DNA of 64,000 bases from Candidatus Nomurabacteria bacterium RIFCSPLOWO2_01_FULL_41_18. Lineage in GTDB: Bacteria; Patescibacteriota; Minisyncoccia; Phycocordibacterales; UBA9973. The notes below the pieces were generated by a model. It did not search any database and had not been told where the DNA came from. It worked only from the letters and a program-made list of their open reading frames with translations. A program made the position numbers and the translations under genes. The stretch lies in assembly GCA_001785865.1 (NCBI GenBank), contig MFUZ01000006.1, forward strand, positions 45,674-109,673, read 5' to 3'. Positions 11,538-28,979 of this stretch are shown here, piece after piece. Positions within the stretch are counted from its first letter, which is position 1, and every line of letters begins with the position of its first letter.

Positions 11538-12194
11538 ATGAATGACGATAAAACATCCGCCGACCCTGAAAAAGAAGAAACTGAACCCCTAGAGGCTACT
11601 GGGGTCATCAGCTCTGAGGAAGCTCAGGCTCGAAGAGGTGATTCTGCTGAATCAGATACTTCTGAAGTTTTAGAATTTGAGTTCAATGAAGATGGGGAAG
11701 AGGACTTGAAGAAAACTTTGAAGAAATTCAGAGCGGACTTAAAGAAATGTAAAGCTGAAAAAGAGGAATATCTGACCGGCTGGCAGAAGGAGCGAGCAGA
11801 ATTTGCGAATTATAGAAAAGGGGAAGACGACCGCAAGGCCATGCTCTCCGAATCCATGCGCGAGCGGATATTGAATCGTTTTCTCTCGGTGATGGATAGT
11901 TTCAATATGGCTTTCGCCCACAAAGAATCATGGGACAAGGTGGATGAAAATTGGAGAAAAGGAGTGGAGTATATTTACGGACAGATGAATACTATCTTTG
12001 AAGAATACGGTGTAAAAGCGATCGGAGTCGAGGGAGAAATTTTTGATCCGAATATTCATCAGTCCATGGAGCTAGTGGCGACAGACAAAAAAGAGCTTGA
12101 TCATACAATCGCCACTGTGATCCAGAAAGGTTATAAGCTCGGGCCACGAATAATGCGGGCGGCGCGGGTAAATGTGTATGAGTATAAGGAATAA
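11538..12194 (+). CDS. grpE: nucleotide exchange factor GrpE
   Basis: Acidic N-terminus. Coiled-coil KAEKEEYLTGWQKERAEFANYRK. C-terminal beta-domain FDPNIHQSMELVATD resembles GrpE FDPnlHeA. Confidence 0.8.
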   Translation: MNDDKTSADPEKEETEPLEATGVISSEEAQARRGDSAESDTSEVLEFEFNEDGEEDLKKTLKKFRADLKKCKAEKEEYLTGWQKERAEFANYRKGEDDRKAMLSESMRERILNRFLSVMDSFNMAFAHKESWDKVDENWRKGVEYIYGQMNTIFEEYGVKAIGVEGEIFDPNIHQSMELVATDKKELDHTIATVIQKGYKLGPRIMRAARVNVYEYKE

Positions 12195-12225: not shown

Positions 12226-13881
12226 ATGAAAAATGAAAGACAAATTTGTGAACATTGTAAGCAAAACTTCGAAATATCGGAGGAGGAATTAAATTTATAT
12301 AAAAAAGTGGGAATTGAATTACCCACGTTGTGTTTTTTTTGCAGAATAAAATTGCACTTATCTTTTTGGATGTTTGGAAAATTTCGCAAAGGGAAGTCTG
12401 ATCTTTCTGGGGAAAGCTTGATCACTGTTTTACCCGCAAGCACTAGGTATCCTATTTATACTCTTACTGAATGGCACAGCGATAAATGGGATGCTATGGG
12501 TTACGGGGTAGATTATGATCCTAATGTTCCATTTTTCAAACAGTTGCAAGAACTACAAGAAAAAGTTCCTCACCCACACCAAAATGGCACCAAAAATACA
12601 AAATGCGATTGGTGTGATGATGTTTGGAATTCTAAAAATTGCTATCTGTCTCGTTCAATGGAAGAATGTGAGGATTTGTTTTATTCATATAGAAATGTAA
12701 AGGTAAAAAATTCCATCGATGCGACCATTTGTTTCAATTGCGAGAAGTGTTATGACTGTGGAGATTGTCACAATTCTTACAAGCTTTTTTACTCAAGACA
12801 TTCTAGAGATTGTATAGAATCAAGCTTTTTATACGATTGTAGGAATTGTCAGAACTGTTTTATGAGTTGGAATCTTCGCAATAAGTCCTATTGTATAGAA
12901 AATGTTCAATATACCAAAGAAGCCTATCAAGAAAAACTAAAATCTTTTCAACTAAATTCATATAAATCTTTACAAACTTTCAAAAAACGTTTTGAGGAAT
13001 TAGCACAAAAAGAAGCAGTTCATAGAGAAAATTTCAATTTTAAGGCACATAATTCTAACGGAAATTATTTATCAGATGTAAAAAATTGCCACAATTGCAA
13101 TACAATAAATGATTCTGAGGACAGTTATAATTGTATTAGGGGAATGAAACATAAATCAAACATAGATGCCAATGGTTGTTGGTATGTCGAATTGATAGGA
13201 AATTGTGCCAATTGTGTAAATTCTTATGCGCTCAAATACAGTAATTGGTCTTCTTCGCGGTATTCGGAATATTTAGATGTATGCATTGAGTGTGATTATT
13301 GTTTTGGTTGTGTTGGGCTTAAGAAAAAGAAATACTGTATTTTAAATAAACAATACACAAAAGAAGAATATGAGGTCTTGAAAGATAAAATTATTGAAGA
13401 TATGAAAAAAAGAGGGGAATATGGAAAATTCTTGCCATATTCTATGAGTGCTGGACCTTTTAATTTTTCAAACGGATTTTTCTACTTTCCAGAAACTAAA
13501 AAGGAAGGCGTTTTAAAATTAGGGGGTTATTGGGAAGATGTCGATGAAAGTCATATAGAAGGAATGCAGACAAATGAATTACCAGACTCTATAAAAGATG
13601 TTCCTGACACCATCATTACTCAAGCACTCATCTGTCCAGAGACTGGTTGGCGTTTCAATATAGCTCAGAATGAACTTTCTTTTTACAAAGCAAACAATAT
13701 TCCACCGCCCAGATATCATTTTGATGTCAGGACCAAAAATCAGTTAAAATATTTAACTGTTCTTCAATCTTACCCATATAAATGTTTTTACTGTAAAAAA
13801 GATATAATGGCTTATTATCCGAGCGAATGGGGATATGAGAAAATAGCATGCGAAGAGTGTTATAAACAAAATATAGCTTGA
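12226..13881 (+). CDS. cysteine-rich multi-zinc-ribbon protein, paralog 1 (zf-trcl-like termini plus central Cys ladder)
   Basis: N-terminus CEHCKQNFEISEEELNLYKKVGIELPTLCFFCR fits the zf-trcl pattern C-x2-C...F..FY....P..C-x2-CR. Central CxxC/CxNC repeats (CFNCEKCYDCGDC, CRNCQNCF, CANCVNSY, CIECDYCFGCVG). C-terminal ribbon ELSFYKANNIPPPRYHFDVR and CEECY. One of five paralogs in the window. Confidence 0.6.
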   Translation: MKNERQICEHCKQNFEISEEELNLYKKVGIELPTLCFFCRIKLHLSFWMFGKFRKGKSDLSGESLITVLPASTRYPIYTLTEWHSDKWDAMGYGVDYDPNVPFFKQLQELQEKVPHPHQNGTKNTKCDWCDDVWNSKNCYLSRSMEECEDLFYSYRNVKVKNSIDATICFNCEKCYDCGDCHNSYKLFYSRHSRDCIESSFLYDCRNCQNCFMSWNLRNKSYCIENVQYTKEAYQEKLKSFQLNSYKSLQTFKKRFEELAQKEAVHRENFNFKAHNSNGNYLSDVKNCHNCNTINDSEDSYNCIRGMKHKSNIDANGCWYVELIGNCANCVNSYALKYSNWSSSRYSEYLDVCIECDYCFGCVGLKKKKYCILNKQYTKEEYEVLKDKIIEDMKKRGEYGKFLPYSMSAGPFNFSNGFFYFPETKKEGVLKLGGYWEDVDESHIEGMQTNELPDSIKDVPDTIITQALICPETGWRFNIAQNELSFYKANNIPPPRYHFDVRTKNQLKYLTVLQSYPYKCFYCKKDIMAYYPSEWGYEKIACEECYKQNIA

Positions 13882-13924: not shown

Positions 13925-15655
13925 ATGGAAACAAAAAGTGAAAATAGAATATGCAAAAACTGCAAAAAAGATTTTACGATAGAATCTGAGGATTTTAATT
14001 TTTACGAAAAGATAAAAGTTACACCGCCTACGTGGTGTGTAGATTGTAGGCAGCAAAGGAGATATGCTTGGAGAAATGAGCGAACTTTATATAGGAGAAA
14101 TTGTGATCTTTGCGGTAAAAGTACTGTGACTATTTATTCCTCCAATAAACATTACAAAGTTTATTGTAATGAGTGCTGGTGGGGAGATGGCTGGGATCCT
14201 GCCTCGTACGGTCGGGATTTTGATTTTACCAGGCCGTTCTTCGAGCAATTTGCAGAATTACAGCGCGATGTCCCGCGCATGGCACTTTTGAATAAAAGAA
14301 GTGTTAATTCCGAATATACAAACCATTCGGGGGATACTAAAAATTGCTATCTTTCTTTTGTGGCTTGGGAAAGTGAAAATATAATGTATAGCAATTGGGT
14401 TCAAAAATCGCGCGACTGCATGGATTGTGCTTATGTTCGAGAAAAGGGGGAACGTCTCTATGAAACTATTGATTCTAGAACCTCCTATCAATGTCAATAC
14501 AGTACCTTCTTAAAAGATTGTTCAAATTGCTATTATTGTTACGATTGTCGTGGATGCAATAATTGTTTTATGTCTTCAAATTTGCGTAATAAAAGCTATG
14601 TATTTAAAAATAAACAATATACTCGGGAAGAATATTTAGAAAAAATGAAAGAATACGAAATGTCTTCTTTTGTTGTTCGTGAAGGATTAAAAAAAGAATT
14701 TACAGACTTGCTAAAACAAGATAGTATTCATCGCTATGTTTTTAGTGAAAGAAGTATAAATTCTAATGGTTCTCTACTCTTTGATTGTAAAAAAGTTGCA
14801 AAGTCTTTTGAAGTTGATAAAAGTGAAGATTGTAAATATATTTACGGAGCTACTGAAATCAAAGATTCCATGGATGTATATCACATAGGTTTAAATACAA
14901 CTGAGCTTTGTTATGAACTTCAAGGGTGTACAAGGACGTCAAACTGCCAATTTTGCCACCTTTGTTATGACAACATGAATGTGATGTATTCTGACACTTG
15001 TCAAAATAGCCAGAATCTTTTTGGATGTGTCTCGGTGAAAAAGGGAGACTATATGATTTTTAACAAAAAATATAGTAAAACAGATTATGAAATATTAAAA
15101 AATAAGATTATTGAACATATGAAGAAAACAGGGGAGTATGGAGAATTTTTCCCTCCACAAATTGCGCCAGTTTATTATAATGAAACGCAGGGCAATCTAT
15201 ATATGCCGATGACGAAGGAAGAAGTGCTGGCAAAAGGCTGGCAATGGGAGGATAATATTCCCGGAACTTTTGGCAAGGAAACGATATCCAGTGGCTCTAT
15301 GCCAGATAAAATAGAAGACGTACCAGATAATTATTTAAATGAAATTTTTTCTTGTATGGAATGTTCCAAGAATTATAATATCACCAAAAATGAGCTTCTT
15401 TTCTATCGAAAGGAAAATTTACCGTTTCCAAGGCGATGCCCGAATTGCCGTTACAAGCGGAGGTTTGACATGCGTCCCGCCAGAAGATTATGGCATCGGA
15501 CTTGTATGTGTAGTCAAAATCATATTGGCCACAGTGGGTCCCCTCGCCTAGAAACAGGCGGGGCAAGTTGCCAAGTCGAATTTGAGACGTGCTACGCGCC
15601 CGAAAGACCAGAAAAAGTTTATTGTGAAAGCTGTTACAATAAGGAAGTATATTAG
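13925..15655 (+). CDS. cysteine-rich multi-zinc-ribbon protein, paralog 2
   Basis: ICKNCKKDFTIESEDFNFYEKIKVTPPTWCVDCRQQRR (zf-trcl-like), followed by a second ribbon CDLCGKS...CNECW. Central CSNCYYCYDCRGCNNCF. C-terminus CMECSKNYNITKNELLFYRKENLPFPRRCPNCRYKRR ... YCESCYNKEVY. Confidence 0.6.
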   Translation: METKSENRICKNCKKDFTIESEDFNFYEKIKVTPPTWCVDCRQQRRYAWRNERTLYRRNCDLCGKSTVTIYSSNKHYKVYCNECWWGDGWDPASYGRDFDFTRPFFEQFAELQRDVPRMALLNKRSVNSEYTNHSGDTKNCYLSFVAWESENIMYSNWVQKSRDCMDCAYVREKGERLYETIDSRTSYQCQYSTFLKDCSNCYYCYDCRGCNNCFMSSNLRNKSYVFKNKQYTREEYLEKMKEYEMSSFVVREGLKKEFTDLLKQDSIHRYVFSERSINSNGSLLFDCKKVAKSFEVDKSEDCKYIYGATEIKDSMDVYHIGLNTTELCYELQGCTRTSNCQFCHLCYDNMNVMYSDTCQNSQNLFGCVSVKKGDYMIFNKKYSKTDYEILKNKIIEHMKKTGEYGEFFPPQIAPVYYNETQGNLYMPMTKEEVLAKGWQWEDNIPGTFGKETISSGSMPDKIEDVPDNYLNEIFSCMECSKNYNITKNELLFYRKENLPFPRRCPNCRYKRRFDMRPARRLWHRTCMCSQNHIGHSGSPRLETGGASCQVEFETCYAPERPEKVYCESCYNKEVY

Positions 15656-15697: not shown

Positions 15698-17410
15698 ATG
15701 GAGTATAAAAACGCAAACAAAATATGTCAAAGTTGTCAGAAAAATTTTACGATAGAACCTGATGATTTTGGGTTTTACAAAAAGATAAAAGTCCCTCCGC
15801 CGACTTTTTGCCCGGAGTGTAGAAGAATGCGACGTTTTGCTCTCACAAATGAAACTGTGCTTTATAAGCGTAAATGTGATTTAACAAGGAAAGACATTTT
15901 TAGCATGTATCCTGAAAATACATTATTCCCAGTTTATGAGACAGATGCTTGGTATTCGGACGAGTGGGATCCGTATGAATACGGAATGGATTTTAATGAA
16001 AATAAACCGTTTCTCGAACAGATCCTAGAGCTCCAAAGTAAAGTACCTAGAATGTCGCTTGTGCGACAAGGTATGGCAGTAAATAGTCCTTATAATCATA
16101 GAGTCTCTGATCCAAAGAATTCTTATATGACTTTCCGGGCTTCTTATCCAGAAGATTGCTTATATTTGTATAATGGTAAATATACAAAAGACTGTGTTGA
16201 CTGTGCTTGGATCTTTGATTCTGAGCTTTGTTATGAATGTGTGAATGTTGAAAATTGTTATAATGTTAAATTTAGCCAAGAAAGTAAAGATTGTCGAGAT
16301 TCGTATTTCATTTATGCATGTAAAAATTGTTCAAATTGTGTTGGTTGTGTCAACCTTGTTAGTCAAGAATATTGTATTTGGAATCAGCGTTATTCTAGAG
16401 AGGAATATTTTAAAAAATTGGAAGAACTTAAATTAAATACTAGCTCAGGGATCAAAGAAATAGAAAAAAAATTACAAGAATTTAGGAAAAAACTTCCTCA
16501 ACGATACATGAGAACTGGAAAATCTGAGAATGTATCTGGAAATTGGTTTTCTAGTTGCAAAAATGTCCATGAGTCTTTTGATTGTGTTGACGTAAAAGAT
16601 GGCAAGCATTTATTTATGGTTTTTGGAGCTGAAGATTGCATGGATTATTACGAATGGGGTAATAAGGCTGAGCAGATTTATGAATCAGTGAATTGTGGGC
16701 TCAATATCACTCGGCTTTATTTTTGCAATCAATGCTGGATGGGGGCGACGGATTTGTATTACTGCAATACTTGCCCTGGAGCACGGAATTGTTTTGGCTG
16801 TGTTGGTCTTAAAAAGGGGGAGTACTCAATTTTAAATAAAAAGTATAGTAAACAGGAATATGAGACATTAAAAGAAAAAATAATTAAACAAATGAAAGAG
16901 GTGCCTTTCATAGACAAGCGTGGTTTGAAATATTATTTCGGAGAGGGTTTTCCGGAAATGTTTTCCGATTTTGCTTACAATGAGACTATTGCTAACTATC
17001 ATTTTCCATTATCTAAAGAAGAAGCTTTGTCGCGGAGATATACATGGAGAGATGTAGACAAAAAAGATTATAAAATAACCATAAAATCAAAAGATTTATC
17101 CGAGACTATTAAAGAAGTGGATGATTCTGTATTGAATGAGATTATAGAGTGTGAGGATAAAAAAAATACAGAATCCGTAGGGGCTTTTCGAATTACACAA
17201 AATGAATTAAATTTTTATAAGAAAATGAATTTACCTCTACCTAAAGCTTGTTTTAATATTCGTCATTTACGCCGGATGAACAAACGTCCACCTCTACGGA
17301 TGCTTAAAAGGAATTGTTCCAAATGCGAGATAGAGACTGAAACAGTCTATGACGAAAATTATGCACCGATAATTTATTGTGAACAATGCTATCAGCAAGA
17401 AGTTTACTAG
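15698..17410 (+). CDS. cysteine-rich multi-zinc-ribbon protein, paralog 3
   Basis: ICQSCQKNFTIEPDDFGFYKKIKVPPPTFCPECRRMRR. Central CKNCSNCVGCVN and CFGCVGLKKGEY. C-terminus ...YCEQCYQQEVY. Confidence 0.6.
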   Translation: MEYKNANKICQSCQKNFTIEPDDFGFYKKIKVPPPTFCPECRRMRRFALTNETVLYKRKCDLTRKDIFSMYPENTLFPVYETDAWYSDEWDPYEYGMDFNENKPFLEQILELQSKVPRMSLVRQGMAVNSPYNHRVSDPKNSYMTFRASYPEDCLYLYNGKYTKDCVDCAWIFDSELCYECVNVENCYNVKFSQESKDCRDSYFIYACKNCSNCVGCVNLVSQEYCIWNQRYSREEYFKKLEELKLNTSSGIKEIEKKLQEFRKKLPQRYMRTGKSENVSGNWFSSCKNVHESFDCVDVKDGKHLFMVFGAEDCMDYYEWGNKAEQIYESVNCGLNITRLYFCNQCWMGATDLYYCNTCPGARNCFGCVGLKKGEYSILNKKYSKQEYETLKEKIIKQMKEVPFIDKRGLKYYFGEGFPEMFSDFAYNETIANYHFPLSKEEALSRRYTWRDVDKKDYKITIKSKDLSETIKEVDDSVLNEIIECEDKKNTESVGAFRITQNELNFYKKMNLPLPKACFNIRHLRRMNKRPPLRMLKRNCSKCEIETETVYDENYAPIIYCEQCYQQEVY

Positions 17411-17447: not shown

Positions 17448-19190
17448 ATGAATCAAGAAACCAGAAATTGTCAAAACTGCAAAAAAGATTTCACGATAGA
17501 GCCAGATGATTTTGGATTTTACACAAAGATCAAAGTCCCTCCGCCCACTTTTTGTCCTGAGTGCCGGAAAATTCGGCGGCTAGTGTGGCGCAACGAACGG
17601 GCATTGTATCGAAACAAATGTGATCTTTGTAAAAAAAATATTATTGCAATGTACAATGAGTCTGTACCTTTTCCTGTGTATTGTCACGCCTGCTGGTTAG
17701 GGGATGGATGGGATCCGCTTTCCTTCGGGCAGGATTATGATTTTTCACGTACATTTTTTGAACAATACAAGAAATTTTCCAAAATTGTGCCGAGAATAGC
17801 TCTTTGGCAGAGAAATTCTATAAATTCGGATTATTCGAATATGGTAGGTGAGTCCAGGAATGTTTACTTGTCTGTTTCCGTAGTGAAAGGATCTGAAAAT
17901 GTTTTTTATTCAAAATCTACAGATAAGTCTAAGGACATAATAGATTCTCTGAATATTATTGGGTCTGAAAATTTATATGAAAACATCGAAGGGCAAAGCA
18001 ATTATAATTCTCAATATCTTTTGCTTTGTCGGAGCTGTATAGATTCTTATTATCTGATCGATTGCGTAAACTGCAGCAATTGTGTCTTATCGAATAATTT
18101 ACGCAATAAACAGTTCTGTATTCGCAACGAGCAGTATACCAAAGAGGAATATCAAAAAAAGATTGATAAATTAAACTTAAAAAGCAGAGCTTCACGCGAG
18201 AAGCTCTGGAGAGAATTTGAAGAGGTGAGGGGCCACGCTATTTATCGTTTTGCCAATTTTACTAAATGTGTAAATGTTACAGGGAATAATCTTTTAAATG
18301 CAAAAAATTGCCAAAATTGTTTTGATGCTTATAACACAGAGAATATAAAATATGGCTACAGGGCGTTTGATTTAAAGGATTGCATGGATCTGGATTATGC
18401 AGCGTGGTCGGAGTTGCTATATGAATATACAACGGGCTCTTTGAATGACTATGATGTTAAGTTTTCTTACTCCGCAATGGATTCGGTGAGAAATGCTGAC
18501 TATACGGAGTTTTGTCGCAACTGCGTCAATATTTTCGGTTGTATTTCTCTCAACAATAAAGAAAATGCGATTTTTAATAAAGTTTATTCCAAAGAAGAAT
18601 TTGAAAAACTGCGCAACGAAATTATCAAGCAAATGAATGATTTACCATATAAAGACAAAGGAGGGAGGATTTATAGGTATGGTGAATTTTTTCCGATTGA
18701 GCTTTCTCCTTGGGCTTATAATGAAACTACAGCGCAGGAAGTCGCTCCTATTACCAAAGATTTTGCGGAAAGGAATGGATTTCCTTGGCGAGAACCGGAA
18801 GTTAAAAATTTTAATATTACGATTCCCGCAGAAAAAATTCCAGACAATATAGAAAAAGTAAATGAGAGTATTTTACAAGAAGTTCTGGAATGTGCTCATA
18901 AAGGAAAATGTGACCAACAATGCAACACAGTGTTTCGTTTGACTGATTATGAACTGAAGTTTTACAAACAACACAAGATTCCGTTGCCGATTCTTTGTCC
19001 GAATTGCCGTTATTATGAAAGAATCAAAATTATACCAGCATTTAAATTATTCGACAGGAGATGTATGTGTGATAAATATAACCATTTTCATGGAGCAGAG
19101 AAATGCACTTTAGAATTTGAAACTCCCTACGCGTCAAACCGGCCGGAAATAGTCTATTGCGAAAAATGTTATCAGCAGGAGGTGTATTAG
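17448..19190 (+). CDS. cysteine-rich multi-zinc-ribbon protein, paralog 4
   Basis: CQNCKKDFTIEPDDFGFYTKIKVPPPTFCPECRKIRR. Central CVNCSNCV. C-terminus LKFYKQHKIPLPILCPNCRYYER ... YCEKCYQQEVY. Confidence 0.6.
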   Translation: MNQETRNCQNCKKDFTIEPDDFGFYTKIKVPPPTFCPECRKIRRLVWRNERALYRNKCDLCKKNIIAMYNESVPFPVYCHACWLGDGWDPLSFGQDYDFSRTFFEQYKKFSKIVPRIALWQRNSINSDYSNMVGESRNVYLSVSVVKGSENVFYSKSTDKSKDIIDSLNIIGSENLYENIEGQSNYNSQYLLLCRSCIDSYYLIDCVNCSNCVLSNNLRNKQFCIRNEQYTKEEYQKKIDKLNLKSRASREKLWREFEEVRGHAIYRFANFTKCVNVTGNNLLNAKNCQNCFDAYNTENIKYGYRAFDLKDCMDLDYAAWSELLYEYTTGSLNDYDVKFSYSAMDSVRNADYTEFCRNCVNIFGCISLNNKENAIFNKVYSKEEFEKLRNEIIKQMNDLPYKDKGGRIYRYGEFFPIELSPWAYNETTAQEVAPITKDFAERNGFPWREPEVKNFNITIPAEKIPDNIEKVNESILQEVLECAHKGKCDQQCNTVFRLTDYELKFYKQHKIPLPILCPNCRYYERIKIIPAFKLFDRRCMCDKYNHFHGAEKCTLEFETPYASNRPEIVYCEKCYQQEVY

Positions 19191-19255: not shown

Positions 19256-19762
19256 TTACTCCCCAAAAGTTTCAAATAGAAATTTTTTGGTTTCATCATC
19301 TACAAATTCTGTGACTATTATCATCATCTCGGTTGTTAGTCCCAGATCCTTTTTTATGTTCGTAAAGAGATGTTCAAATGGGAAAGGGGATATCCATGCA
19401 GAATTTTTGAGGCAAACAAAGCCAGCTTTTTTCAAAAGATAACGCAAGCTCTCGCGTTCAGGTTTTCTCTCTTCCGGCAGGTCAAGGAGGATTATCCGCC
19501 AAAACCCATCCCAATTGGTATTCACTAGGTTTGTCTCGCCGTCCAGCATCAAGCTATTCAATTTGTTTTTCCCTTTCACTGTGATTTTGGCGTAGCTTTG
19601 TCTTTCAGATCTATAAATTTCAGCGCAGTTTTCTTTTACTAGGTTTTTTAGGGAACGCGAAAGAGCATAAGCGGTTTTTGCGTCCCCTTCTTTCAGATTG
19701 TATAGAGAAACTGCCGGACTTTCGGCTAGTTTTTTGAGTATTTTCTTTGAATTGCTTGACAT
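19256..19762 (-). CDS. PaaX-family-like transcriptional regulator
   Basis: C-terminal region WDGFWRIILLDLPEERKPERESLRYLLKKAGFVCLKNSAWISPF resembles the PaaX_C motif W.G.W.lv.ydiPe..r..Rd.lr..L...GfG.l.nSvWisP. The N-terminal half is compatible with a winged helix. Divergent from dnaK. Confidence 0.5.
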   Translation of the reverse strand: MSSNSKKILKKLAESPAVSLYNLKEGDAKTAYALSRSLKNLVKENCAEIYRSERQSYAKITVKGKNKLNSLMLDGETNLVNTNWDGFWRIILLDLPEERKPERESLRYLLKKAGFVCLKNSAWISPFPFEHLFTNIKKDLGLTTEMMIIVTEFVDDETKKFLFETFGE

Positions 19763-19849: not shown

Positions 19850-21775
19850 ATGAGCAAAATCATAGGTATAGATTTAGGTACGACAAATTCGGCAGTTGCC
19901 ATCATCGAGGGCGGTGCACCGAAAATTATAGAAAATATCGAAGGAAATCGCACTACGCCTTCTGTGGTAGCGACTGCAAAAAATGGTGACCGCGTAGTCG
20001 GGCTTTTGGCCAAGAGACAAGCGGTGACTAATCCGGAAAATACGATTGCCGAAGTAAAGCGCCTGATGGGGCATCGTTTCGATGATCCGGAAATACAAAA
20101 AGACCGCACAACTTCGCCGTTCAAGATCGACGCGGGAGACGGAGGTGGAGTCAAAGTAAAAATGTTGGATAAATTTTATCGACCGGAGGAAATTTCTGCA
20201 ATGATCCTGCAGAAAATAAAGACTGATGTCGAAGCAAAATTGGGAGAAAAAATAACCGAAGCGGTCATTACCGTGCCAGCATATTTCAACGATGCACAAA
20301 GAAAAGCCACGAAGGATGCTGGAGCTATTGCAGGACTTGATGTGAAGCGCATTATAAACGAACCGACCGCGGCAGCTTTGGCTTATGGATTTGATAAGAA
20401 GAAAAATGAAAAAATTGTAGTTTACGATTTCGGCGGGGGAACTTTTGACGTATCAGTGCTAGAAATCGGAGATGATGTCATCGAAGTGAAGTCTACAGAC
20501 GGAGACAGCCACATGGGTGGAGGAGATATCGACCGAAAAATAATAAGGTGGATAGCGGAGGAATATAAAAAGGAATCCGGAATTGATGTGACCAAGGACC
20601 CACTCGCGCACCAGAGACTCCGAGAAGCAGCTGAGAAAGCTAAACACGAGCTTTCTACCACAATGGAAGCAGAAATAAACATCCCATTTATCACTTCAGA
20701 TGCTGGAGGTCCAAAACATCTGCTCATGAAAATGTCTAGGGCGACACTGGAAACGCTTACCAAAGATCTGATCGATCGCTCTATCGAGATTACCAAGCGA
20801 GCATTAGCAGCTTCTCCATTCAAGATGAACGAAATTAATGAGATAATCATGGTCGGAGGGCAGACCAGAATGCCAGCAATCGTTTCTGCGGTAAAGAATC
20901 TTTTTAATAAGGAGCCGAATATGTCCATCAACCCGGATGAAGTCGTGGCGCTCGGAGCCGCCGTCCAGGCAGGAGTATTGCAGGGAGATGTGCGAGATGT
21001 GCTCTTACTCGATGTCATACCGCTATCTCTCGGAATTGAAACTCTAGGAGGAGTGGCTACGAAATTGATCGAAAGGAATACTACTATTCCGTCCAGCAAA
21101 TCTCAGATATTCTCGACCGCAGCCGACAATCAAACTTCAGTAGAAATACATATTGTGCAAGGAGAGCGCCCGATGGCTTCCGACAACAAATCTCTCGGAA
21201 GATTCATCTTGGATGGTGTTCCACCAGCACCACGTGGCATGCCACAGATCGAAGTAGCCTTTGATGTAGATGCGAATGGCATACTGAATGTGACCGCGAA
21301 GGATAAGGCTTCTGGCAAAACTCAATCGATCAAAATAGAGGCTAGCTCTGGACTTAAAGATGAGGAAATTAAAAAGATGCAGAAAGATGCGGAACTGCAC
21401 GCGGAGGAAGACAAAAAGAAAAAAGAAGTTGTGGATATAAAGAATACTGCTGAAATGATTATTTATACTGCTGAAAAAGCATTGAAAGACAACGAAGCAA
21501 AGATCCCTGCGGAACTCAAAGACAGTGTAAATGCAAAAATCACTGCGCTCCGAACTGCAAAAGATGGCACTGATGCGGAGGCAATCAAAAAAGCTACAGA
21601 AGAACTTTCTTCTGAAATGTCCAAAATAGGCCAAGCCATGAATCAAAATGGCGCAGGTGCTGAGCCAACTGGCGAAGCAGGGGGAAATAAAACTCCCGAA
21701 GAACAGCCCGCCGAAGTCAAAGACGCCGAATTCAAGGAAGCAAAGAAGGACGAAGGTGAAACACCTAGGTCGTAA
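19850..21775 (+). CDS. dnaK: molecular chaperone DnaK (Hsp70)
   Basis: [23 protein letters not shown] and the full Hsp70 architecture at 641 aa. Confidence 0.97.
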
Positions 21776-21789
21776 AATTACTAAAAACT

Positions 21790-21813
21790 AAAAGCCCTCG
21801 CAAAGGGGCTTTT
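21790..21813 (+). terminator. Rho-independent terminator after dnaK
   Basis: AAAAGCCC-tcgcaaag-GGGCTTTT followed by a T-rich stretch. Confidence 0.6.
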
Positions 21814-21846
21814 AGTTTTGCCCATTTTATTGTAAAATAGTGCTAT

Positions 21847-24027
21847 ATGGATTTTCCAGACATACCTACCAATAAGGAGATAACTTATCTTGGAATTACC
21901 ACTTATCGGGACAAGAACCAGCTTTTTGGTATCAAGCGCAAAGACAGGCGCCAGCATGTTTATATTCTCGGAAAGTCCGGTACCGGTAAATCTGTGCTCA
22001 TGTTCAACATGATAATACAGAATATTAAGAATGGCGACGGAGTCTGCATGGTTGACCCGCACGGAGAAAATGTAGAAGCCATACTTTCGGCTATTCCTCC
22101 ACATCGCGTAAAAGACGTGGTTTACTTCAATCCTGCCGATGCAGACCATCACATAGGCTTCAATGTCCTCGAATTGATCGACCCCCAGTACAAGCATCTG
22201 GTAGCTTCTGGGTTGATGGGCATCTTTACGAAGATCTGGGCGAACGCCTGGAGCGCGAGAATGGAATACATTTTGAACAATGCGATCTTGGCCCTCCTCG
22301 ATACTCCGGGCACGACTCTTCTTGGTATTCCCAGAATGTTGGTGGACAAAGATTATCGGCAGAAAATAATTTCAAATCTGAAGGATCCGGTTATCAAGGC
22401 CTTCTGGGTGCATGAGTACGAAGCTTGGCAGGATAAATTCAGGAATGAAGCTATCGCTCCGATCCAAAACAAAGTCGGCCAGTTTCTTTCTACTTCCATT
22501 ATACGAAACGTCGTCGGTCAATCGAAGAGTACGATCAATATCTTTGACATGATGAACGAGGGCAAGATCTTTCTTGTGAATGTGTCAAAAGGGCGTATCG
22601 GCGAAGACAACTCGAGCTTACTCGGAGGCATGATTATCACCAAGATCCAGCTAGCCGCCATGGAGCGCGTGCGTATTCCGGAAGAATCTCGTAAAGACTT
22701 TTATCTTTATGTTGACGAATTCCAAAACTTCGTGACGGATGCTTTTGCTGGTATTTTATCTGAGGCTAGAAAATACAGGCTGAATTTGACTGTGGCGCAC
22801 CAGTACACTGCTCAGCTGGTGGTGGATAAAAGTTCGGCAGTGCGTGATGCAGTGTTTGGCAACGTCGGTACCATGATCGTGTTTCGGGTGGGCTCGGATG
22901 ATGCGGAATTTCTCGAATCAGAATTCGATCCCGAGTTCACTCCGCAGGACATAGTGAATCTGCCGAACTACAAGGTTTATCTGAAACTCATGATAGATGG
23001 CGTGACGTCCCGTCCTTTTTCAGCAAAAACTCTGCCGCAAATGGTGAAGTCTGGAAACAGGGAAATAGAAGAAGAAGTGATACGATCTTCTCGCGCGCTG
23101 TATTGCCGAAGCAAGGAAATCGTGGAGAGAGAGATAAATGACTGGAGCGGGATGTCGCTCGGCAATGATACCGACATGGGAAGCGGAGCTTTGGAGAAAT
23201 TTCCCGTAATTTGTTCCAATTGCAAAAAAGAAACAACCGTGCCTTTTAAGCCCGAACCAGGACGTCCAGTTTATTGCAAAGAATGTATTGCAAAAATAAA
23301 GTCTGGGGAAATAAAAGTTACAAAAGGTTCTGAAAATCAGATCAAGCATGACGAAACCACTTTTTTCCAGCCTCTCGCTGATTTAGGCATAGAGTTCCAG
23401 CAGAAAGACAGGGTGAAGGGTGAAGAAAAGGAAAGGTACCCGGAAAGAGTCGAGAAAAAAAAGAGCCCGACTTTTTCTGCTTCTCCTCTGCCGAACAAGT
23501 CGTTAGCCTCGGAAGCATCTCAAAGCAAACCGGGCCTATTTAGAACGATTAAAAAAGTTTTCAATAAAAGCGCCCCGTCCGTGCCGGCGAGTACTGCTCC
23601 AAAAGGAGGAGAGCCGCGAACTTTACCAGCACCCGCAAAAATTTTCCAAAGATCAGAGAGGCCTAATCAACCAAATACCAAGGAAAATGTCGCCTTGAGA
23701 GAAATATTAAATAAAGTGGTTGCCAAACCGCCTACTCAAAATGCGAACCAGCCTGTTTCAGCTCCTGTGCCCCCTCCTGCACCGGCTCCAGTTTCGCTCG
23801 ATACTCTTAAAAACCTGCCTGCGCAGGCAGGTAAAATTCTTAATCTGCCTTCTAAAGATCGCGCAGCGAGTTCTGAAGATATGAATAAGCTGAAGAACCT
23901 TATCCTAGAGAAAGAAAAAACTCCTACTCCTACTACCCCTGGCCCCGCACCCGCTTCGGCTTCTACTCCTATTCCTCAAAAACCAAAAGAAGTTCCGGAA
24001 GATGTTTTAAGAAAAATTTTGGAGTAA
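21847..24027 (+). CDS. soluble T4CP-like (VirD4/TraG/TraD-family) P-loop ATPase with C-terminal zinc ribbon and Pro/Ala-rich tail
   Basis: Walker A YILGKSGTGKS, then MVDPHGE (the DPKGE-like motif of coupling proteins). Walker B region YLYVDEFQNF, then ARKYRLNLTVAHQYTAQL (TraG-D_C-like HQ..xQL). No N-terminal TM. The C-terminus carries ICSNCKKETTVPFKPEPGRPVYCKEC plus a low-complexity P/A/T-rich tail. Confidence 0.6.
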   Translation: MDFPDIPTNKEITYLGITTYRDKNQLFGIKRKDRRQHVYILGKSGTGKSVLMFNMIIQNIKNGDGVCMVDPHGENVEAILSAIPPHRVKDVVYFNPADADHHIGFNVLELIDPQYKHLVASGLMGIFTKIWANAWSARMEYILNNAILALLDTPGTTLLGIPRMLVDKDYRQKIISNLKDPVIKAFWVHEYEAWQDKFRNEAIAPIQNKVGQFLSTSIIRNVVGQSKSTINIFDMMNEGKIFLVNVSKGRIGEDNSSLLGGMIITKIQLAAMERVRIPEESRKDFYLYVDEFQNFVTDAFAGILSEARKYRLNLTVAHQYTAQLVVDKSSAVRDAVFGNVGTMIVFRVGSDDAEFLESEFDPEFTPQDIVNLPNYKVYLKLMIDGVTSRPFSAKTLPQMVKSGNREIEEEVIRSSRALYCRSKEIVEREINDWSGMSLGNDTDMGSGALEKFPVICSNCKKETTVPFKPEPGRPVYCKECIAKIKSGEIKVTKGSENQIKHDETTFFQPLADLGIEFQQKDRVKGEEKERYPERVEKKKSPTFSASPLPNKSLASEASQSKPGLFRTIKKVFNKSAPSVPASTAPKGGEPRTLPAPAKIFQRSERPNQPNTKENVALREILNKVVAKPPTQNANQPVSAPVPPPAPAPVSLDTLKNLPAQAGKILNLPSKDRAASSEDMNKLKNLILEKEKTPTPTTPGPAPASASTPIPQKPKEVPEDVLRKILE

Positions 24028-24037
24028 ATTTGTTGAA

Positions 24038-25708
24038 ATGAATCAAGAAACTAAAAATTGTAAAAAGTGCAAGCAAGATTTTGTCTTAGATCAGAATGAT
24101 TTAGGTTTTTATGAAAAAATGAAAGTGCCCGTACCAAAAATTTGTCCGAACTGCCGTTTCAAGATGCGGGCGATGTTTAGAAATGAAACCACACTTTATT
24201 CTGGACGCAAATGCGCACTTTGTAATAATAATGTTATTTCAATGTATAATCCAAAATCTCCTTATGCTATCTATTGCTATAGATGTTTTTATTCTTCCAA
24301 GTGGGAAGCGAGGGATTATGCGATGGATTATGATGAAAAGAGATCTTTTATAGAACAGTTTGGTGAGTTACTCAAAAAAGTTCCCAAAATTACAACTTTC
24401 TTGTCAACTGGTTATGGTCTTAATGTAAATAGCGAATATTCGAATATGGCGAGTGGTTGCAAAAATTGCTATTTAGTTTTTAACACTGGGCCAGCGGAAG
24501 AAGTCTTGTACGCCCGGGGAATTAGAGATTGTCGTGACTGTGTTGATATGTATTTCGGAGTAAATGATGAACGTTGTTATGAATGTATAAATGTCCACCA
24601 GTCTTCCGGTATCCTCTCCGGTAAAAATGTTAATGGATCTGTAGATTGCTGTTTTGTGTTAAATTGTCGAAATGTGATGAATTGTTTTGGATGTGTGAAT
24701 TTAAATAATAAATCACACCATTTTTTAAATCAACCGATGTCGGGAGAAGAATACAAGAAAAAAGTAAGTGAAATTTTAGGTAGCTATAAAAAAACTGAAG
24801 AATTTAGAAAACAATTTGAAAAATTTACATTACAATTTCCAATGCGTGAGAATAATAATATAAAAACTACTAATTCAACTGGAGATTATTTGTTTGAGTG
24901 TAAAAATGTAAGAGATTCTTTCGAAATTACGAAAAGCGAAGATTGTCGCTACTTGTATTCTTCTAAAGAAATTAGGGATTCTGTTGGCACTATCGGTTAT
25001 GGGGTAAATTCGGAATGCTTATTGGAGGTAGTGGCTTCTGGACAATCCAGTAACTGCATAGGTTCTTATGGCCTCGAACACTCCAGTGATATTTTATATG
25101 GATTTTATACTTCCAAATGCCAAGACTGCATTGGTTGTGATGGGCTGAAAAATGGAAAATATTTTATTTTAAATAAACAATATGAACAAGCTGAATACGA
25201 GAGGCTCAGAGAAAAAATTATTCAAGAACTAAAAGAAAAAGATTTATATGGATTGATGATACCGCCAGAACTTGCCCCCTTTGCCTACAATGAAACGATT
25301 GCGCAAGACAGTATGCCTCTCACCAAGGAAGAAGCTTTGGCGCAGGGTTTTCGTTGGGAAGAAGACATACAAAAGACAGAAGGAAAGGAAACAGTTGATC
25401 CGGAAAACATTTCGGACCATATAAAAGATGTAAAAGATTCTATAACCAACGAGATTTTAAGATGTATAGATTGCAATAGAAACTATAAAATCATAGATCA
25501 AGAGCTTATGTTTTACAGGAAAATGAATATTCCGCTTCCTAGAAAGTGTTTTTATTGTAGGCACCGGGATCGTATTGTCAAACGTGGCCCATACAAATTC
25601 TGGAATAGGAATTGTGCAAAATGCAATATGGAGATTATGACAAATTATTCACCTGAAAGACCAGAAATTGTATACTGCGAGAAATGTTATCAGCAGGAAG
25701 TTTATTAG
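24038..25708 (+). CDS. cysteine-rich multi-zinc-ribbon protein, paralog 5
   Basis: CKKCKQDFVLDQNDLGFYEKMKVPVPKICPNCRFKMR. Central CRNVMNCFGCVN and CIGCDGLKNGKY. C-terminus LMFYRKMNIPLPRKCFYCRHRDR ... YCEKCYQQEVY. Confidence 0.6.
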   Translation: MNQETKNCKKCKQDFVLDQNDLGFYEKMKVPVPKICPNCRFKMRAMFRNETTLYSGRKCALCNNNVISMYNPKSPYAIYCYRCFYSSKWEARDYAMDYDEKRSFIEQFGELLKKVPKITTFLSTGYGLNVNSEYSNMASGCKNCYLVFNTGPAEEVLYARGIRDCRDCVDMYFGVNDERCYECINVHQSSGILSGKNVNGSVDCCFVLNCRNVMNCFGCVNLNNKSHHFLNQPMSGEEYKKKVSEILGSYKKTEEFRKQFEKFTLQFPMRENNNIKTTNSTGDYLFECKNVRDSFEITKSEDCRYLYSSKEIRDSVGTIGYGVNSECLLEVVASGQSSNCIGSYGLEHSSDILYGFYTSKCQDCIGCDGLKNGKYFILNKQYEQAEYERLREKIIQELKEKDLYGLMIPPELAPFAYNETIAQDSMPLTKEEALAQGFRWEEDIQKTEGKETVDPENISDHIKDVKDSITNEILRCIDCNRNYKIIDQELMFYRKMNIPLPRKCFYCRHRDRIVKRGPYKFWNRNCAKCNMEIMTNYSPERPEIVYCEKCYQQEVY

Positions 25709-25732: not shown

Positions 25733-27277
25733 ATGCCAAAGCCAAATCGAGTCCAAATAATCAAATACGGACCGCCGCCGCCAGAGCTGCCCGTGTTCGG
25801 CAAGGTCAAACCGGAGGAAGTTTCTTTTATTGGACGGACCAACTACGTAGCAGCTCTCGAGGAAAAGAAATTTATTTTCGGAATCAAGAGAATAGACCGC
25901 AGACGCCATCTATATATTATCGGTAAGTCCGGCGTGGGCAAGACCAAGCTTCTAGAGTTAATGCTCCGCCAAGACATCACCTATGACCACGGGCTTTGCT
26001 TGATCGACCCACACGGGGACGTGATAGAGGCGATGCTCGACTATATTCCCAAAGAACGCATCGATGATGTCTGTATCATCGACCCTACTGATCTTGATTT
26101 TCCGGCGTCTTTCAATCCACTTGCCAATGTGGACCCATTATTTAAGTTTCAATTGACCCAAGGCCTGATCGAGGTCTTCCAGAAGCAATTCGGGGCAAAT
26201 TGGACACCACGTCTCGAACACGTCTTTCGCTTTACCTGTCTCGCTCTGCTCGACTATCCGCACGCCACCATGCGGGGAATGATTTCGATGCTGACCGATC
26301 GAAACTACCGACAGAAAGTGGTGGAATATATCACCGACGACATGGTCAAAAGATTCTTCGCAATCGAATTTGCCGATTGGTCGGAGAAATTCGACACCGA
26401 CGCCATCATTCCTTTGGTGAACAAGCTCGGGCAATTCCTATCTGATCCCTTACTACGAAACATATTCGGACAGAAGCAGAACAAGATAGATATAAGTAAA
26501 TTAATGAATGAGGAAAAGATTGTCCTCATCAATCTCTCAAAGGGCCGCTTGGGCGAAGAAAATTCTTCATTTCTCGGTTCCATATTCCTGACAAAAATAA
26601 AACAGGCCGGAATGGAGCGTGCCGCTATACCCGAGAAGGACCGTAAGGATTTTTATATCTATGTCGACGAGTTCCAAAACGTAGTGACTCAGACTTTTGA
26701 AAATATTTTGTCGGAGGCGAGAAAGTACGGGCTCAACCTCACCATGGCTCATCAGTATGTGGGGCAGATCATTACCAAAGTCCACCAAGCGGTGCTCGGA
26801 AACTGTGGTAGCATTATCACTTTCCGCGTCGGCGGAGAAGATGCGGTGAAATTGAAGCCGGAATTTGCACCCCTGTTTGATGTGAAGGATATGATCAACC
26901 TTGCGGTAGCGGAATTTTATATCAAGATGACCATCGATGGAGAGTCTTACGATCCATTTTCAGCTGAGACACTCCGAGTCTTGCCACCGACGCATCCTTC
27001 ATATAGAAAAGAAATAATCGATGCTTCTCATAAAAAATATTCAATATCCAAACATGATGCCGCGAGGCTGATCGCTGAAGAAGAGGCGACAATAATCAGA
27101 AGCGCAGAAGAAAAAGCGATAATTGAAGGAAGAGCGAAAAGAAAGGAAAAAGAAGCTAAATCCAGCGAAGCTGGATCGCCCGACGATTCTGAAGAATCGT
27201 TTAGGGAAAATGAAACTGTAGAAAAACGAAAGACGAAAGAGAATAAAACTTCCCAAGAGGCCGAGCCTATGATATAA
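25733..27277 (+). CDS. soluble T4CP-like P-loop ATPase, paralog 2 (charged C-terminal tail)
   Basis: YIIGKSGVGKT, LIDPHGD, YIYVDEFQNV, ARKYGLNLTMAHQYVGQI. Paralogous to the 21847-24027 gene. Lys/Glu-rich C-terminal tail. Confidence 0.6.
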   Translation: MPKPNRVQIIKYGPPPPELPVFGKVKPEEVSFIGRTNYVAALEEKKFIFGIKRIDRRRHLYIIGKSGVGKTKLLELMLRQDITYDHGLCLIDPHGDVIEAMLDYIPKERIDDVCIIDPTDLDFPASFNPLANVDPLFKFQLTQGLIEVFQKQFGANWTPRLEHVFRFTCLALLDYPHATMRGMISMLTDRNYRQKVVEYITDDMVKRFFAIEFADWSEKFDTDAIIPLVNKLGQFLSDPLLRNIFGQKQNKIDISKLMNEEKIVLINLSKGRLGEENSSFLGSIFLTKIKQAGMERAAIPEKDRKDFYIYVDEFQNVVTQTFENILSEARKYGLNLTMAHQYVGQIITKVHQAVLGNCGSIITFRVGGEDAVKLKPEFAPLFDVKDMINLAVAEFYIKMTIDGESYDPFSAETLRVLPPTHPSYRKEIIDASHKKYSISKHDAARLIAEEEATIIRSAEEKAIIEGRAKRKEKEAKSSEAGSPDDSEESFRENETVEKRKTKENKTSQEAEPMI

Positions 27278-27292
27278 TGGCTAAATAACCTT

Positions 27293-28402
27293 ATGAATAA
27301 AGACTATTACAACATTTTAGGTGTAAATAAAAGCGCTTCCAAAGACGAAATAAAAAAGGCTTTTTATAAGCTGGCACACAAATATCATCCTGATAAAAAG
27401 GAGGGTAACGAATCAAAATTCAAGGAAGTGAATGAGGCTTATCAGGTGCTTTCGGACGAAGGGAAACGGGCAAAATATGATCAATTCGGATCAGGTTTTG
27501 AGAATGCGCAAGGGTTCGGCGGAGGGCAAGGAGGATTTGGAGGCTTCGACGGGGCAGGCTTTGGAGGATTTCAAGGTGCAAATGTGGATTTTGATTTCGG
27601 AAACCTGAATGATATCTTTAGCGATTTCTTTTCCGCCGGAGGCGGACCAGCCTCTGGCTGGGGAGGTAATAAGGCTCGTCGCGGCCGAGACATCTCGACC
27701 GAGATCCAGATTTCTTTTTCTGATTCTATTTTTGGCATAAGCAGAAAAATTCTTATCACTAAGACATCTAATTGTCTTACTTGCCACGGTTCTAGCGCGA
27801 AGGCGGGTTCGGGAATGGTAACTTGTAAAACTTGCAATGGTCAAGGACAGATTCGTGAATCAAAAAGAACAATATTTGGAAATATTGCGAATACAAAGAT
27901 TTGTGAGGCTTGTCTAGGTGCTGGTGAAGTGCCGAAGGAGGCTTGCGAGACCTGTCGCGGCAAAGGAGTCATGCGCCGGGAAGAAGAAGTTGATATCAGC
28001 ATCCCTGCCGGTATACGAGACGGAGAGATGATCCGGATGTCGGGTTATGGCGAGGCTGTTTCCAAAGGAACAGCAGGAGACCTTTATATCAAGATAAACG
28101 TTGCCCCGCACCCTGTCTTCAAACGCGATGGCCACGACATCGTAATGAATCTGAATTTGAAACTTTCTGACGCACTCCTCGGGACAAAATATCCAATAGA
28201 AACTCTGGATGGACATATCGAAGTGACTATTCCTGAAGGCGTGGGGATAAACGAAGTTCTTCGAGTGAAAGGCAAAGGTGTGCCGATGGGGGCGAAAAAT
28301 AAGCGCGGCGACCTCCTTATCAAACTCAACATCAAACTTCCTTCAAAAATTTCTCGCAAATCTCGCGAACTTATAGCTGAACTCAAAAAGGAAGGAATAT
28401 AG
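27293..28402 (+). CDS. dnaJ: co-chaperone DnaJ
   Basis: J-domain (DYYNILGV...HPD), G/F-rich linker, four CxxCxG(x)G zinc-finger repeats and a C-terminal domain. Confidence 0.92.
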
Positions 28403-28406
28403 CTCC

Positions 28407-28979
28407 ATGCTACCAGAGAATATTATATATATCGGGGTGGTGGTAGGTCTAGTATCCATCTTTCTTTACATTAAAAATATTTTTTTTGGCACTACTCGAC
28501 CAAATCTAGTTTCTTGGACTCTATGGCTACTCGGCCCATTTCTCGGTGTATTTTTTCAACTTAAAGCCGGAGCAGGGCTCTCGGTATTGCCTGTGTTCAT
28601 GGCTGGCTTTGGACCATTGCTGGTAGTTATATTTTCAATTTTTAGGAAAAACTCCTACTGGAAACTGAGTACGTTTGATATATTTTGCGGAATATTTTCT
28701 ATACTTGCATTAGTATTGTATGCATTGACTCACAATCTAGCAGTATCAATTATTTTTGCAATACTAAGCGATCTATTGGCCTTTGTACCTACTTATATAA
28801 AAGGGTGGAAATTTCCAGAATCTGAAACATCTTCTGTTTACATCACAGGTCTTTTTAATAATATTTTAGGTTTACTAATTATCAAAAATTGGTCTTTTAC
28901 CATCTATTCGTTCGGTTTGTATCTAATAATTGCGAATATTGTAATGATTTACTTTTTATATCGCAAAAAGATTTTTTAA
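28407..28979 (+). CDS. polytopic membrane protein, unknown function
   Basis: About six hydrophobic helices. No recognisable motif. Confidence 0.35.
   Translation: MLPENIIYIGVVVGLVSIFLYIKNIFFGTTRPNLVSWTLWLLGPFLGVFFQLKAGAGLSVLPVFMAGFGPLLVVIFSIFRKNSYWKLSTFDIFCGIFSILALVLYALTHNLAVSIIFAILSDLLAFVPTYIKGWKFPESETSSVYITGLFNNILGLLIIKNWSFTIYSFGLYLIIANIVMIYFLYRKKIF

Follow-up and report, generated by a model that had tools for sequence, protein, structure and literature searches.

Why does a P-loop ATPase encoded inside the grpE-dnaK-dnaJ locus of Candidatus Nomurabacteria bacterium RIFCSPLOWO2_01_FULL_41_18 harbour a zinc ribbon, and does this ribbon tie it to the Cys-rich proteins encoded around it? The window analysed here is a stretch of 64,000 nucleotides of contig MFUZ01000006.1. 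The gene in question, found in the list of open reading frames (ORFs) and by Pfam at 21847..24027 on the + strand, codes for a soluble VirD4/TrwB-like P-loop ATPase of 726 residues that we called ATPase1. Five paralogous Cys-rich proteins, par0 to par4, are encoded in the same locus, in agreement with the count of an earlier note on this DNA. That note held the ATPase1 ribbon to be near-identical in pattern to the N-terminal ribbons of the paralogs and took this likeness as evidence for one system of a motor and its clients. We favour another explanation, at a probability of roughly 60%: ATPase1 would carry a canonical ribbon on the disordered tail of a conserved soluble VirD4/TrwB-like ATPase, the likeness to the paralogs would be one of family level, and the tail would presumably serve as a ligand tether.

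The ribbon itself is real. Translation of the + frame between positions 23158 and 23301 contains EKFPVICSNCKKETTVPFKPEPGRPVYCKECIAKIK, the full reading being LGNDTDMGSGALEKFPVICSNCKKETTVPFKPEPGRPVYCKECIAKIK. This segment encodes one canonical PF23477/TIGR04272 zinc ribbon of the form CxxC-x17-CxxC, at residues 451-483 (23197..23295, + strand); its Cys core, CSNC-x17-CKEC, corresponds to residues 456-480 (23212-23286), with a spacing of exactly 17. Both curated cut-offs are exceeded, with 49.6 bits for Pfam PF23477 (zf_Tbcl_2; cut-off 27, E=3e-13) and 52.2 bits for NCBIfam TIGR04272 ('CxxC-x17-CxxC domain'; cut-off 36). Across 80 species-level genomes, all orthologous loci that can be read at this place (79/79) retain the motif, and a further one is masked by N. 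Alignment of the orthologues shows no variation at the four Cys or at VPF, P469, R473 and Y476. A ribbon behind the type IV coupling protein (T4CP)-like core, as the earlier note had described, is thus borne out by the domain scores and by conservation. Its designation as C-terminal has to be amended, since ~240 residues come after it. Minus-strand ORFs across the ribbon segment (e.g. 23020-23349) were treated as spurious, because the protein of the + frame is conserved in thousands of homologues.

There is nothing unusual about the ATPase1 ribbon as such: it belongs to a domain family that is widespread and has already been catalogued. When the 43-residue ATPase1 segment was compared by HMMER with 1.84 billion cluster representatives, at least 2406 matched at E<=0.001, and the best 150 all have PF23477. 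The PF23477 signature VPFKP...[RK]PVYC is present in the ATPase1 ribbon (VPFKP...RPVYCxxC), in agreement with the consensus of 246 generic ribbons, and hhalign gave 99.45% (E=4e-22) between the ATPase1 and generic ribbons. ATPase1 differs from most members of the family by its single copy inside a large ATPase tail, whereas the others are mostly small proteins with 2-5 tandem ribbons joined by Lys/Arg/Gly-rich linkers. The non-ribbon sequence of these small proteins contains 12% Lys, 10% Arg and 9% Gly; RGG/GRG motifs occur in 67/111 non-ATPase members, and Lys/Ala-rich, histone H1-like tails in many. Small CxxC-x17-CxxC proteins of Methanosarcina mazei bind zinc, as measured by inductively coupled plasma mass spectrometry (PMC12704099). 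Many of the small proteins (P0241-P0390) share an architecture comprising an RG-rich N-terminus, two ribbons, a helix F..LN.KLDKIL and a Lys/Ala-rich histone H1-like tail. Another protein of the set, P0331, had been considered as a Csl4/S1-ribbon fusion, which Pfam did not confirm, and it was dropped as evidence.

Is this ribbon the counterpart of those of the paralogs? The latter are laid out as a ribbon A (CxxC-x24-CxxC), ~18 residues, a ribbon B (CxxC-x17-CxxC), two Cys-rich blocks, and a C-terminal pair of A and B ribbons. We ran the profile test twice, with the five paralogs of the window and then with ~195-200 ribbons per type from 204 paralogs of related genomes. The N-terminal A profile, to which the earlier note had pointed, matched the ATPase segment in two fragments of 7.3 and 2.6 bits (10.5 in all), a score reached by 35/5000 Cys-fixed shuffles; hhalign against the ATPase ribbons gave 13.8% over 11 columns that cover the first knuckle only. 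The C-terminal A profile scored 1.3 bits (1067/5000 shuffles; hhalign 1.8%). Against the N-terminal A profile, 77 orthologue ribbons, whose consensus is CSLCKK, scored 5.5 +/- 1.6 bits; hence, the likeness of 'CSNCKK' to the A ribbons is peculiar to the ATPase1 of this genome. The A ribbons, first and third in the paralogs, are related to PF13451 (zf_Tbcl). As in the ATPase ribbon, there are two CxxC knuckles, the first of which (CxNCKK.F.I) is similar in both, but the A ribbons have x24 spacing, an inserted F.FY.K helix and PPxxCxxCR, whereas the ATPase ribbon has x17 spacing and no insert. By these sequence criteria, the ATPase ribbon is not the counterpart of the N-terminal ribbon of the paralogs, and the near-identity put forward in the earlier note does not hold.

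The B ribbons give a different picture. The B_N profile matched the ATPase segment end to end with 17.9 bits (0/5000 Cys-fixed shuffles; hhalign 96.6% over 29 columns) and the B_C profile, also end to end, with 14.8 bits (8/5000; 93.1% over 29 columns). Among 40 members of the paralog family, Pfam weakly recognized A as PF13451 in 21/40 and B as PF23477 in 20/40 at E<=0.01, and hhalign between the A and B profiles gave at most 28%. The second and last ribbons of the paralogs are divergent PF23477 members, which lack the VPFKP signature. As a generic control, we scored 240 ribbons from 111 matched proteins other than ATPase tails against the same profiles; they reached 14.4 +/- 5.7 bits (B_N) and 13.7 +/- 5.0 bits (B_C), and 27% and 44% of them, respectively, scored at least as high as ATPase1. 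The paralog profiles therefore do not place the ATPase1 ribbon above the generic CxxC...CxxC background. At its non-Cys positions, the ATPase1 ribbon is 13% identical to paralog B_N, 19% to B_C and 38% to generic ribbons, the last value being inflated since those are the best matches to the ATPase1 query. What remains is a likeness at the level of the family, to the second and last ribbons of the paralogs. Motor and paralogs do have a homologous family in common, as proposed; the part of the proposal that fails is that the shared element is the N-terminal ribbon and is specific to them. Because unrelated PF23477 ribbons match the paralog profiles equally well, the ribbon gives no evidence for a motor-client system, and to take it as proof of one would be a mistake. 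More generally, small zinc modules that two proteins have in common should not count as evidence of interaction until a generic-family control has been made. Recent domain exchange or gene conversion is also rejected, since blastn of the ribbon DNA against the window gave chance matches of 10-15 nt only; one of these, of 11 nt, falls within the N-terminal ribbons of two paralogs.

The ATPase that bears the ribbon is organized into a core (residues ~10-430), the ribbon and then a disordered tail. Its core scores above the Pfam cut-offs for TrwB_AAD_bind (39.1 bits), DUF87 (35.5), T4SS-DNA_transf (27.5) and TraG-D_C (24.4), and the Pfam alignment covers the region of the all-alpha domain (AAD). 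The Walker A motif GKSGTGKS (residues 42-49; 21970..21993, + strand) is invariant in the orthologue alignment, and a Walker B-like motif FYLYVDE lies at residues 285-291 (22699..22719, + strand). Databases contain >8000 ATPase1 homologues; the best 120 are 68-80% identical, and 120/120 of these have PF23477. Several homologues already go under the name 'CxxC-x17-CxxC domain-containing protein' or 'type IV secretion system DNA-binding domain-containing protein'. Among solved structures, the sole sequence match of ATPase1 is TrwB, around the Walker A motif.

Thus, ATPase1 resembles the type IV coupling proteins TrwB, VirD4 and TraD by its P-loop core with Walker A and B motifs, by its Pfam domains and by a long C-terminal extension that might recruit partners as those of TraD or DotL do. 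It differs from them by the absence of an N-terminal membrane anchor: no transmembrane segment was found, the maximum 19-residue hydropathy being 1.13 with no window above 1.6. It is also chromosomal, duplicated and set within an Hsp70 operon, and its core is almost invariant among the aligned orthologues. All NCBIfam T4CP models score far under their cut-offs with ATPase1, the best being SXT_TraD (49.5 bits vs 366) and CD1115 (37.1 vs 250). No type IV secretion system (T4SS; VirB4) or relaxase genes were found near ATPase1 among the annotated ORFs of the window, part of the ORFs being unscanned; those annotated are housekeeping genes (AlaRS, rpoA, rpsD, grpE, dnaK, dnaJ, DnaB and others). Judged from its sequence, ATPase1 would be coupling-protein-like in its core, yet by its missing membrane anchor, its annotated neighbours and its NCBIfam scores it falls short of other defining features of T4CPs. 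Its lack of T4SS context agrees with a 2025 survey that counted 5713 VirD4-like homologues in 2918 Patescibacteria genomes, 148 of them near virB4, and left exaptation open (PMC12102498). With HerA/FtsK-type ATPases, ATPase1 has in common the P-loop superfamily, as reflected in its DUF87 score and in weak PADLOC matches to HerA and mad8; it differs from them by the absence of NurA or of a defence partner, and none of the PADLOC HerA models matches it over its full length. As PADLOC yielded only these weak mad8/HerA matches, there is no sign of a defence system.

The fusion of ribbon and ATPase is old. A metagenome scan seeded with a distant relative yielded 66 'far' ATPases that are 50-65% identical, and in 56/65 complete tails of these distant Patescibacteria proteins, the corresponding position is occupied by x17 ribbons, one to three in number. 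Most of the nine ribbon-free tails have KKKRKRKRKK-type patches instead. The ribbon-tail fusion is ancestral to this ATPase family. In the 30 distant loci with at least 8 kb of flank, a paralog was found in 2/30, dnaK or dnaJ in 1/30 and ATPase2, the second T4CP-like ATPase of the window, in 0/30. Because distant ATPases keep the ribbon without those neighbours, the association with paralogs and Hsp70 genes is later and clade-specific. Other neighbours were observed in the distant set. Upstream of the ribbon-bearing ATPase, with a median gap of 4 bp, 34/66 loci (L086 7371-9128 and 33 others of L083-L162) have a gene for a protein of ~555 residues that has membrane helices in its N-terminal part and is matched by no Pfam family, and a protein with Sigma70_r4 and HARE-HTH domains is often encoded further upstream. 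The window has no homologue of either protein.

What might the ribbon do? We propose, at slightly less than even odds, that ribbon and tail capture a ligand for the motor, with nucleic acid as the favoured candidate. The ribbon, together with basic and short conserved motifs of the tail, would act as a flexible tether. This tether would bind either an adaptor or a polyanionic ligand, the likeliest being nucleic acid, and pass it on to the presumably ring-shaped motor. Nucleic acid is favoured because motors of the FtsK/HerA/T4CP superfamily act on nucleic acids and because the ATPase1 ribbon carries a strong positive charge (net +4.1 per 33 residues). It is also favoured because the tandem-ribbon members of the family are basic, RGG/GRG-bearing and often H1-like tailed, and because the ribbon-less ATPase tails carry poly-Lys/Arg patches. 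T4CP tails such as those of TraD, with TraM, and of DotL recruit partners. The ATPase1 tail would resemble these C-terminal extensions in its mode of working, by analogy and not by membership in the T4CPs.

Immediately after the ribbon of ATPase1, a motif GEIKV..NQIK.DE..F.PLADLGIEF (23305..23397, + strand) is nearly invariant in 11 orthologues. The remainder (23398..24027, + strand) is of low complexity, as the earlier note had stated, with a Pro/Lys/Ala-rich composition, and it includes short conserved islands identified in the orthologue alignment. These are IKKVF (23548-23562), EN.ALRE.LNK (23683-23715), VSLD.LK (23791-23811), SKDRAAS.EDMNKLK.LI (23851-23904) and the C-terminal EVPEDVLRKILE (23989-24024), all on the + strand. 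Six short islands between positions 23305 and 24027 are thus near-invariant among orthologues within a 'low-complexity' tail, and they look like short linear docking motifs.

Several points weigh against this explanation. In the stand-alone ribbon proteins, basic residues are mostly in the linkers and not in the ribbons, the net charge of generic ribbons averaging +0.7. The location beside zinc-rich proteins within the grpE-dnaK-dnaJ operon would be just as compatible with a protein client. A search of the PDB with a five-ribbon protein gave no match, and the ribbon family has no solved structure. An AlphaFold2 model of ATPase1 from an 11-sequence alignment (predicted local distance difference test, pLDDT, of 40; predicted template modelling score, pTM, of 0.24) is unusable for ring assembly or tail docking. 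Finally, the paralog count in the distant lineages covers the ATPase neighbourhoods and not whole genomes.

To weigh the alternatives, the organization of the locus has to be considered. Between positions 11538 and 28979, the genes of a canonical grpE-dnaK-dnaJ operon are set apart by the five paralogs, both T4CP-like ATPases and the PaaX_M-like gene, which is divergent. The order is grpE, par0 to par3, the paaX-like gene on the minus strand, dnaK, a hairpin, ATPase1, par4, ATPase2, dnaJ and a gene for a 190-aa membrane protein. Starting at ATPase1, the successive gaps measure 10, 24, 15 and 4 bp. This backbone is conserved in Nomurabacteria-type loci, which have three fixed sites with differing numbers of paralogs. 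At the first, between grpE and the paaX-like gene, 0, 1, 2, 3 and 4 paralogs occur in 10, 9, 19, 4 and 0 loci, respectively; between the two ATPases, in 15, 15, 23, 7 and 1 loci; and after dnaJ, in 46, 5, 1, 0 and 0 loci.

The alternative that survives best, although we consider it improbable, is that the ribbon is a module specific to the motor and its clients, which would serve ribbon-ribbon or metal-bridged contacts between ATPase1 and the paralogs, or binding to one common ligand, within one system. PF23477-type ribbons are indeed present on both types of proteins, in 53/73 loci the next gene downstream of ATPase1 is a paralog, at least one is found between the ATPases in 46/61, and the intergenic gaps are of 10 and 24 bp. 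In two further lineages (L096 and L162), paralogs abut the ATPase with no Hsp70 genes in view. However, the ribbon that had been named, at the N-terminus, fails to match, unrelated PF23477 ribbons resemble the B ribbons just as well, the VPFKP signature is missing from the paralog ribbons, and there is no similarity at the DNA level. Moreover, the ribbon is kept in lineages and loci without neighbouring paralogs: 7/49 full loci have none, and ribbon identity to the consensus is 0.86 there vs 0.85 in loci with paralogs. That ATPases and paralogs belong to one system is plausible in this clade independently of the ribbon, from synteny and from the gene spacing of 10-24 bp. A functional link between them is thus suggested by the conserved gene order, and this part of the earlier proposal stands on grounds other than the one it had given, the ribbon providing no evidence for it. 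The link of both to the Hsp70 genes likewise comes from their arrangement in this clade.

A broader scenario, which we judge slightly less probable still, is that in Nomurabacteria-type Patescibacteria a machine as yet undescribed has colonized the grpE-dnaK-dnaJ operon. Two soluble T4CP-like motors, of which one keeps the ancestral ribbon tail, would form it together with a rapidly expanding family of internally duplicated, four-ribbon Cys-rich proteins of ~560 residues. The PF23477-type ribbons of motor and clients would bind the same ligand, e.g. nucleic acid, in a chaperone-coupled system for loading or translocation. Such a system would matter for a lifestyle that is reduced and dependent on a host. 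Patescibacteria have approximately two orphan T4CP-like ATPases per genome, and the ancestral ribbon on their disordered tail offers a handle on what they do, through zinc, nucleic acid or an adaptor. We find more interesting the clade-specific placement of two such ATPases and of a variable set of Cys-rich proteins inside an Hsp70 operon. Literature searches on PF23477, PF13451, TIGR04272, zf-trcl or this operon arrangement returned no paper.

Less likely again is that the ribbon acts as a zinc- or redox-sensing switch or as a chaperone-docking element that couples the ATPase to Hsp70, in the manner of the zinc centres of DnaJ or Hsp33. The conserved order from grpE through dnaK, ATPase1, a paralog in some loci and ATPase2 to dnaJ would agree with such a role, as would the conserved Cys4 site; dnaK is located at most 2.6 kb upstream of ATPase1 in 66/68 loci in which it was seen. 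Nevertheless, the ribbon persists in distant lineages, in which Hsp70 genes lie nearby in only 1/30 loci, the family consists mostly of small basic proteins unconnected with chaperones, and a terminator-like hairpin parts dnaK from ATPase1. Lastly, a chance CxxC...CxxC pattern devoid of structural meaning has next to no probability: Cys pairs are common and the tail around the ribbon is low in complexity, but chance is refuted by the PF23477 E-value and the TIGR04272 score above cut-off, by the invariant Cys and neighbouring residues, and by the Cys-fixed shuffles, of which 0/5000 and 8/5000 reached the scores obtained with the second-ribbon and C-terminal B profiles.

The other genes of the locus were defined as follows. 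grpE (11538..12194, + strand) was identified by Pfam GrpE with 125 bits, and dnaK (19850..21775, + strand), dnaJ (27293-28402, + strand) and the conserved 190-aa membrane protein at the end of the cluster (28407-28979, + strand) from the ORF list and synteny. A 168-aa protein with a PaaX_M domain (19256..19762, minus strand; Pfam and synteny) is a conserved divergent neighbour of dnaK. The hairpin after dnaK (21784-21819) is a 14-pair palindrome with flanking T and A runs, 28 nt upstream of the ATPase1 start; from its sequence, it could be a bidirectional terminator or an attenuator. Several related genomes have, in the interval from dnaK to ATPase1, an ORF of ~70 residues whose Cys4 motif, CPKCGYTTA...x24...CKKC, is of another kind (L004 2072-2281, L005 9461-9745, L010 9392-9604, L016 9714-9926, L023 3415-3618 and L027 9262-9471). 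It is absent from the window, in which the gap between dnaK and ATPase1 is 71 bp.

ATPase2 (25733..27277, + strand; assigned from Pfam and pairwise identity) is 46% identical to ATPase1 over the core. As the earlier note had observed, its tail is instead Glu/Lys-rich. It has no ribbon, and the x17 motif was found in 0/63 of its orthologues. ATPase2 is a ribbon-less duplicate of ATPase1 and looks like the divergent copy, from which the ribbon was lost.

Among the paralogs, par0 (12226-13881), par1 (13925-15655), par2 (15698-17410) and par3 (17448-19190), all on the + strand, show the layout of A and B ribbons at both ends, with some degenerate knuckles. The fifth, par4 (24038..25708, + strand; 556 aa), was identified by ribbon scan and Pfam, and its four ribbons were located from their Cys spacing: A_N (x24; 24059-24154), B_N (x17; 24212-24286), A_C (x24; 25463-25558) and B_C (x17; 25613-25687), all on the + strand. 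Its Pfam matches are weak and under cut-off (PF13451, 17.0 bits; PF23477, 17.7 bits). It is 100% identical to P0121, a 'hypothetical protein A2738_01815' of Candidatus Nomurabacteria bacterium, and a third search for homologues, by means of the paralog profile, added nothing to the par4-like set. The AlphaFold2 model of par4 has a pTM of 0.81, with confident ends and a low-confidence middle; Foldseek comparison of this model with the PDB gave no match at E<=0.001, the best having E 2.3. Internal duplication is apparent from hhalign in the paralogs, with 99.5% between the N-terminal and C-terminal ribbon pairs and 99.4% between the Cys-rich blocks at 118-262 and 268-402, and all copies end in ...YC.xCYQQEVY.

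Elsewhere in the window, Rfam and tRNA scans found nothing. A 744-aa NHL/beta-propeller repeat protein, unrelated to the ribbon, adjoins AlaRS at 2411-4645.

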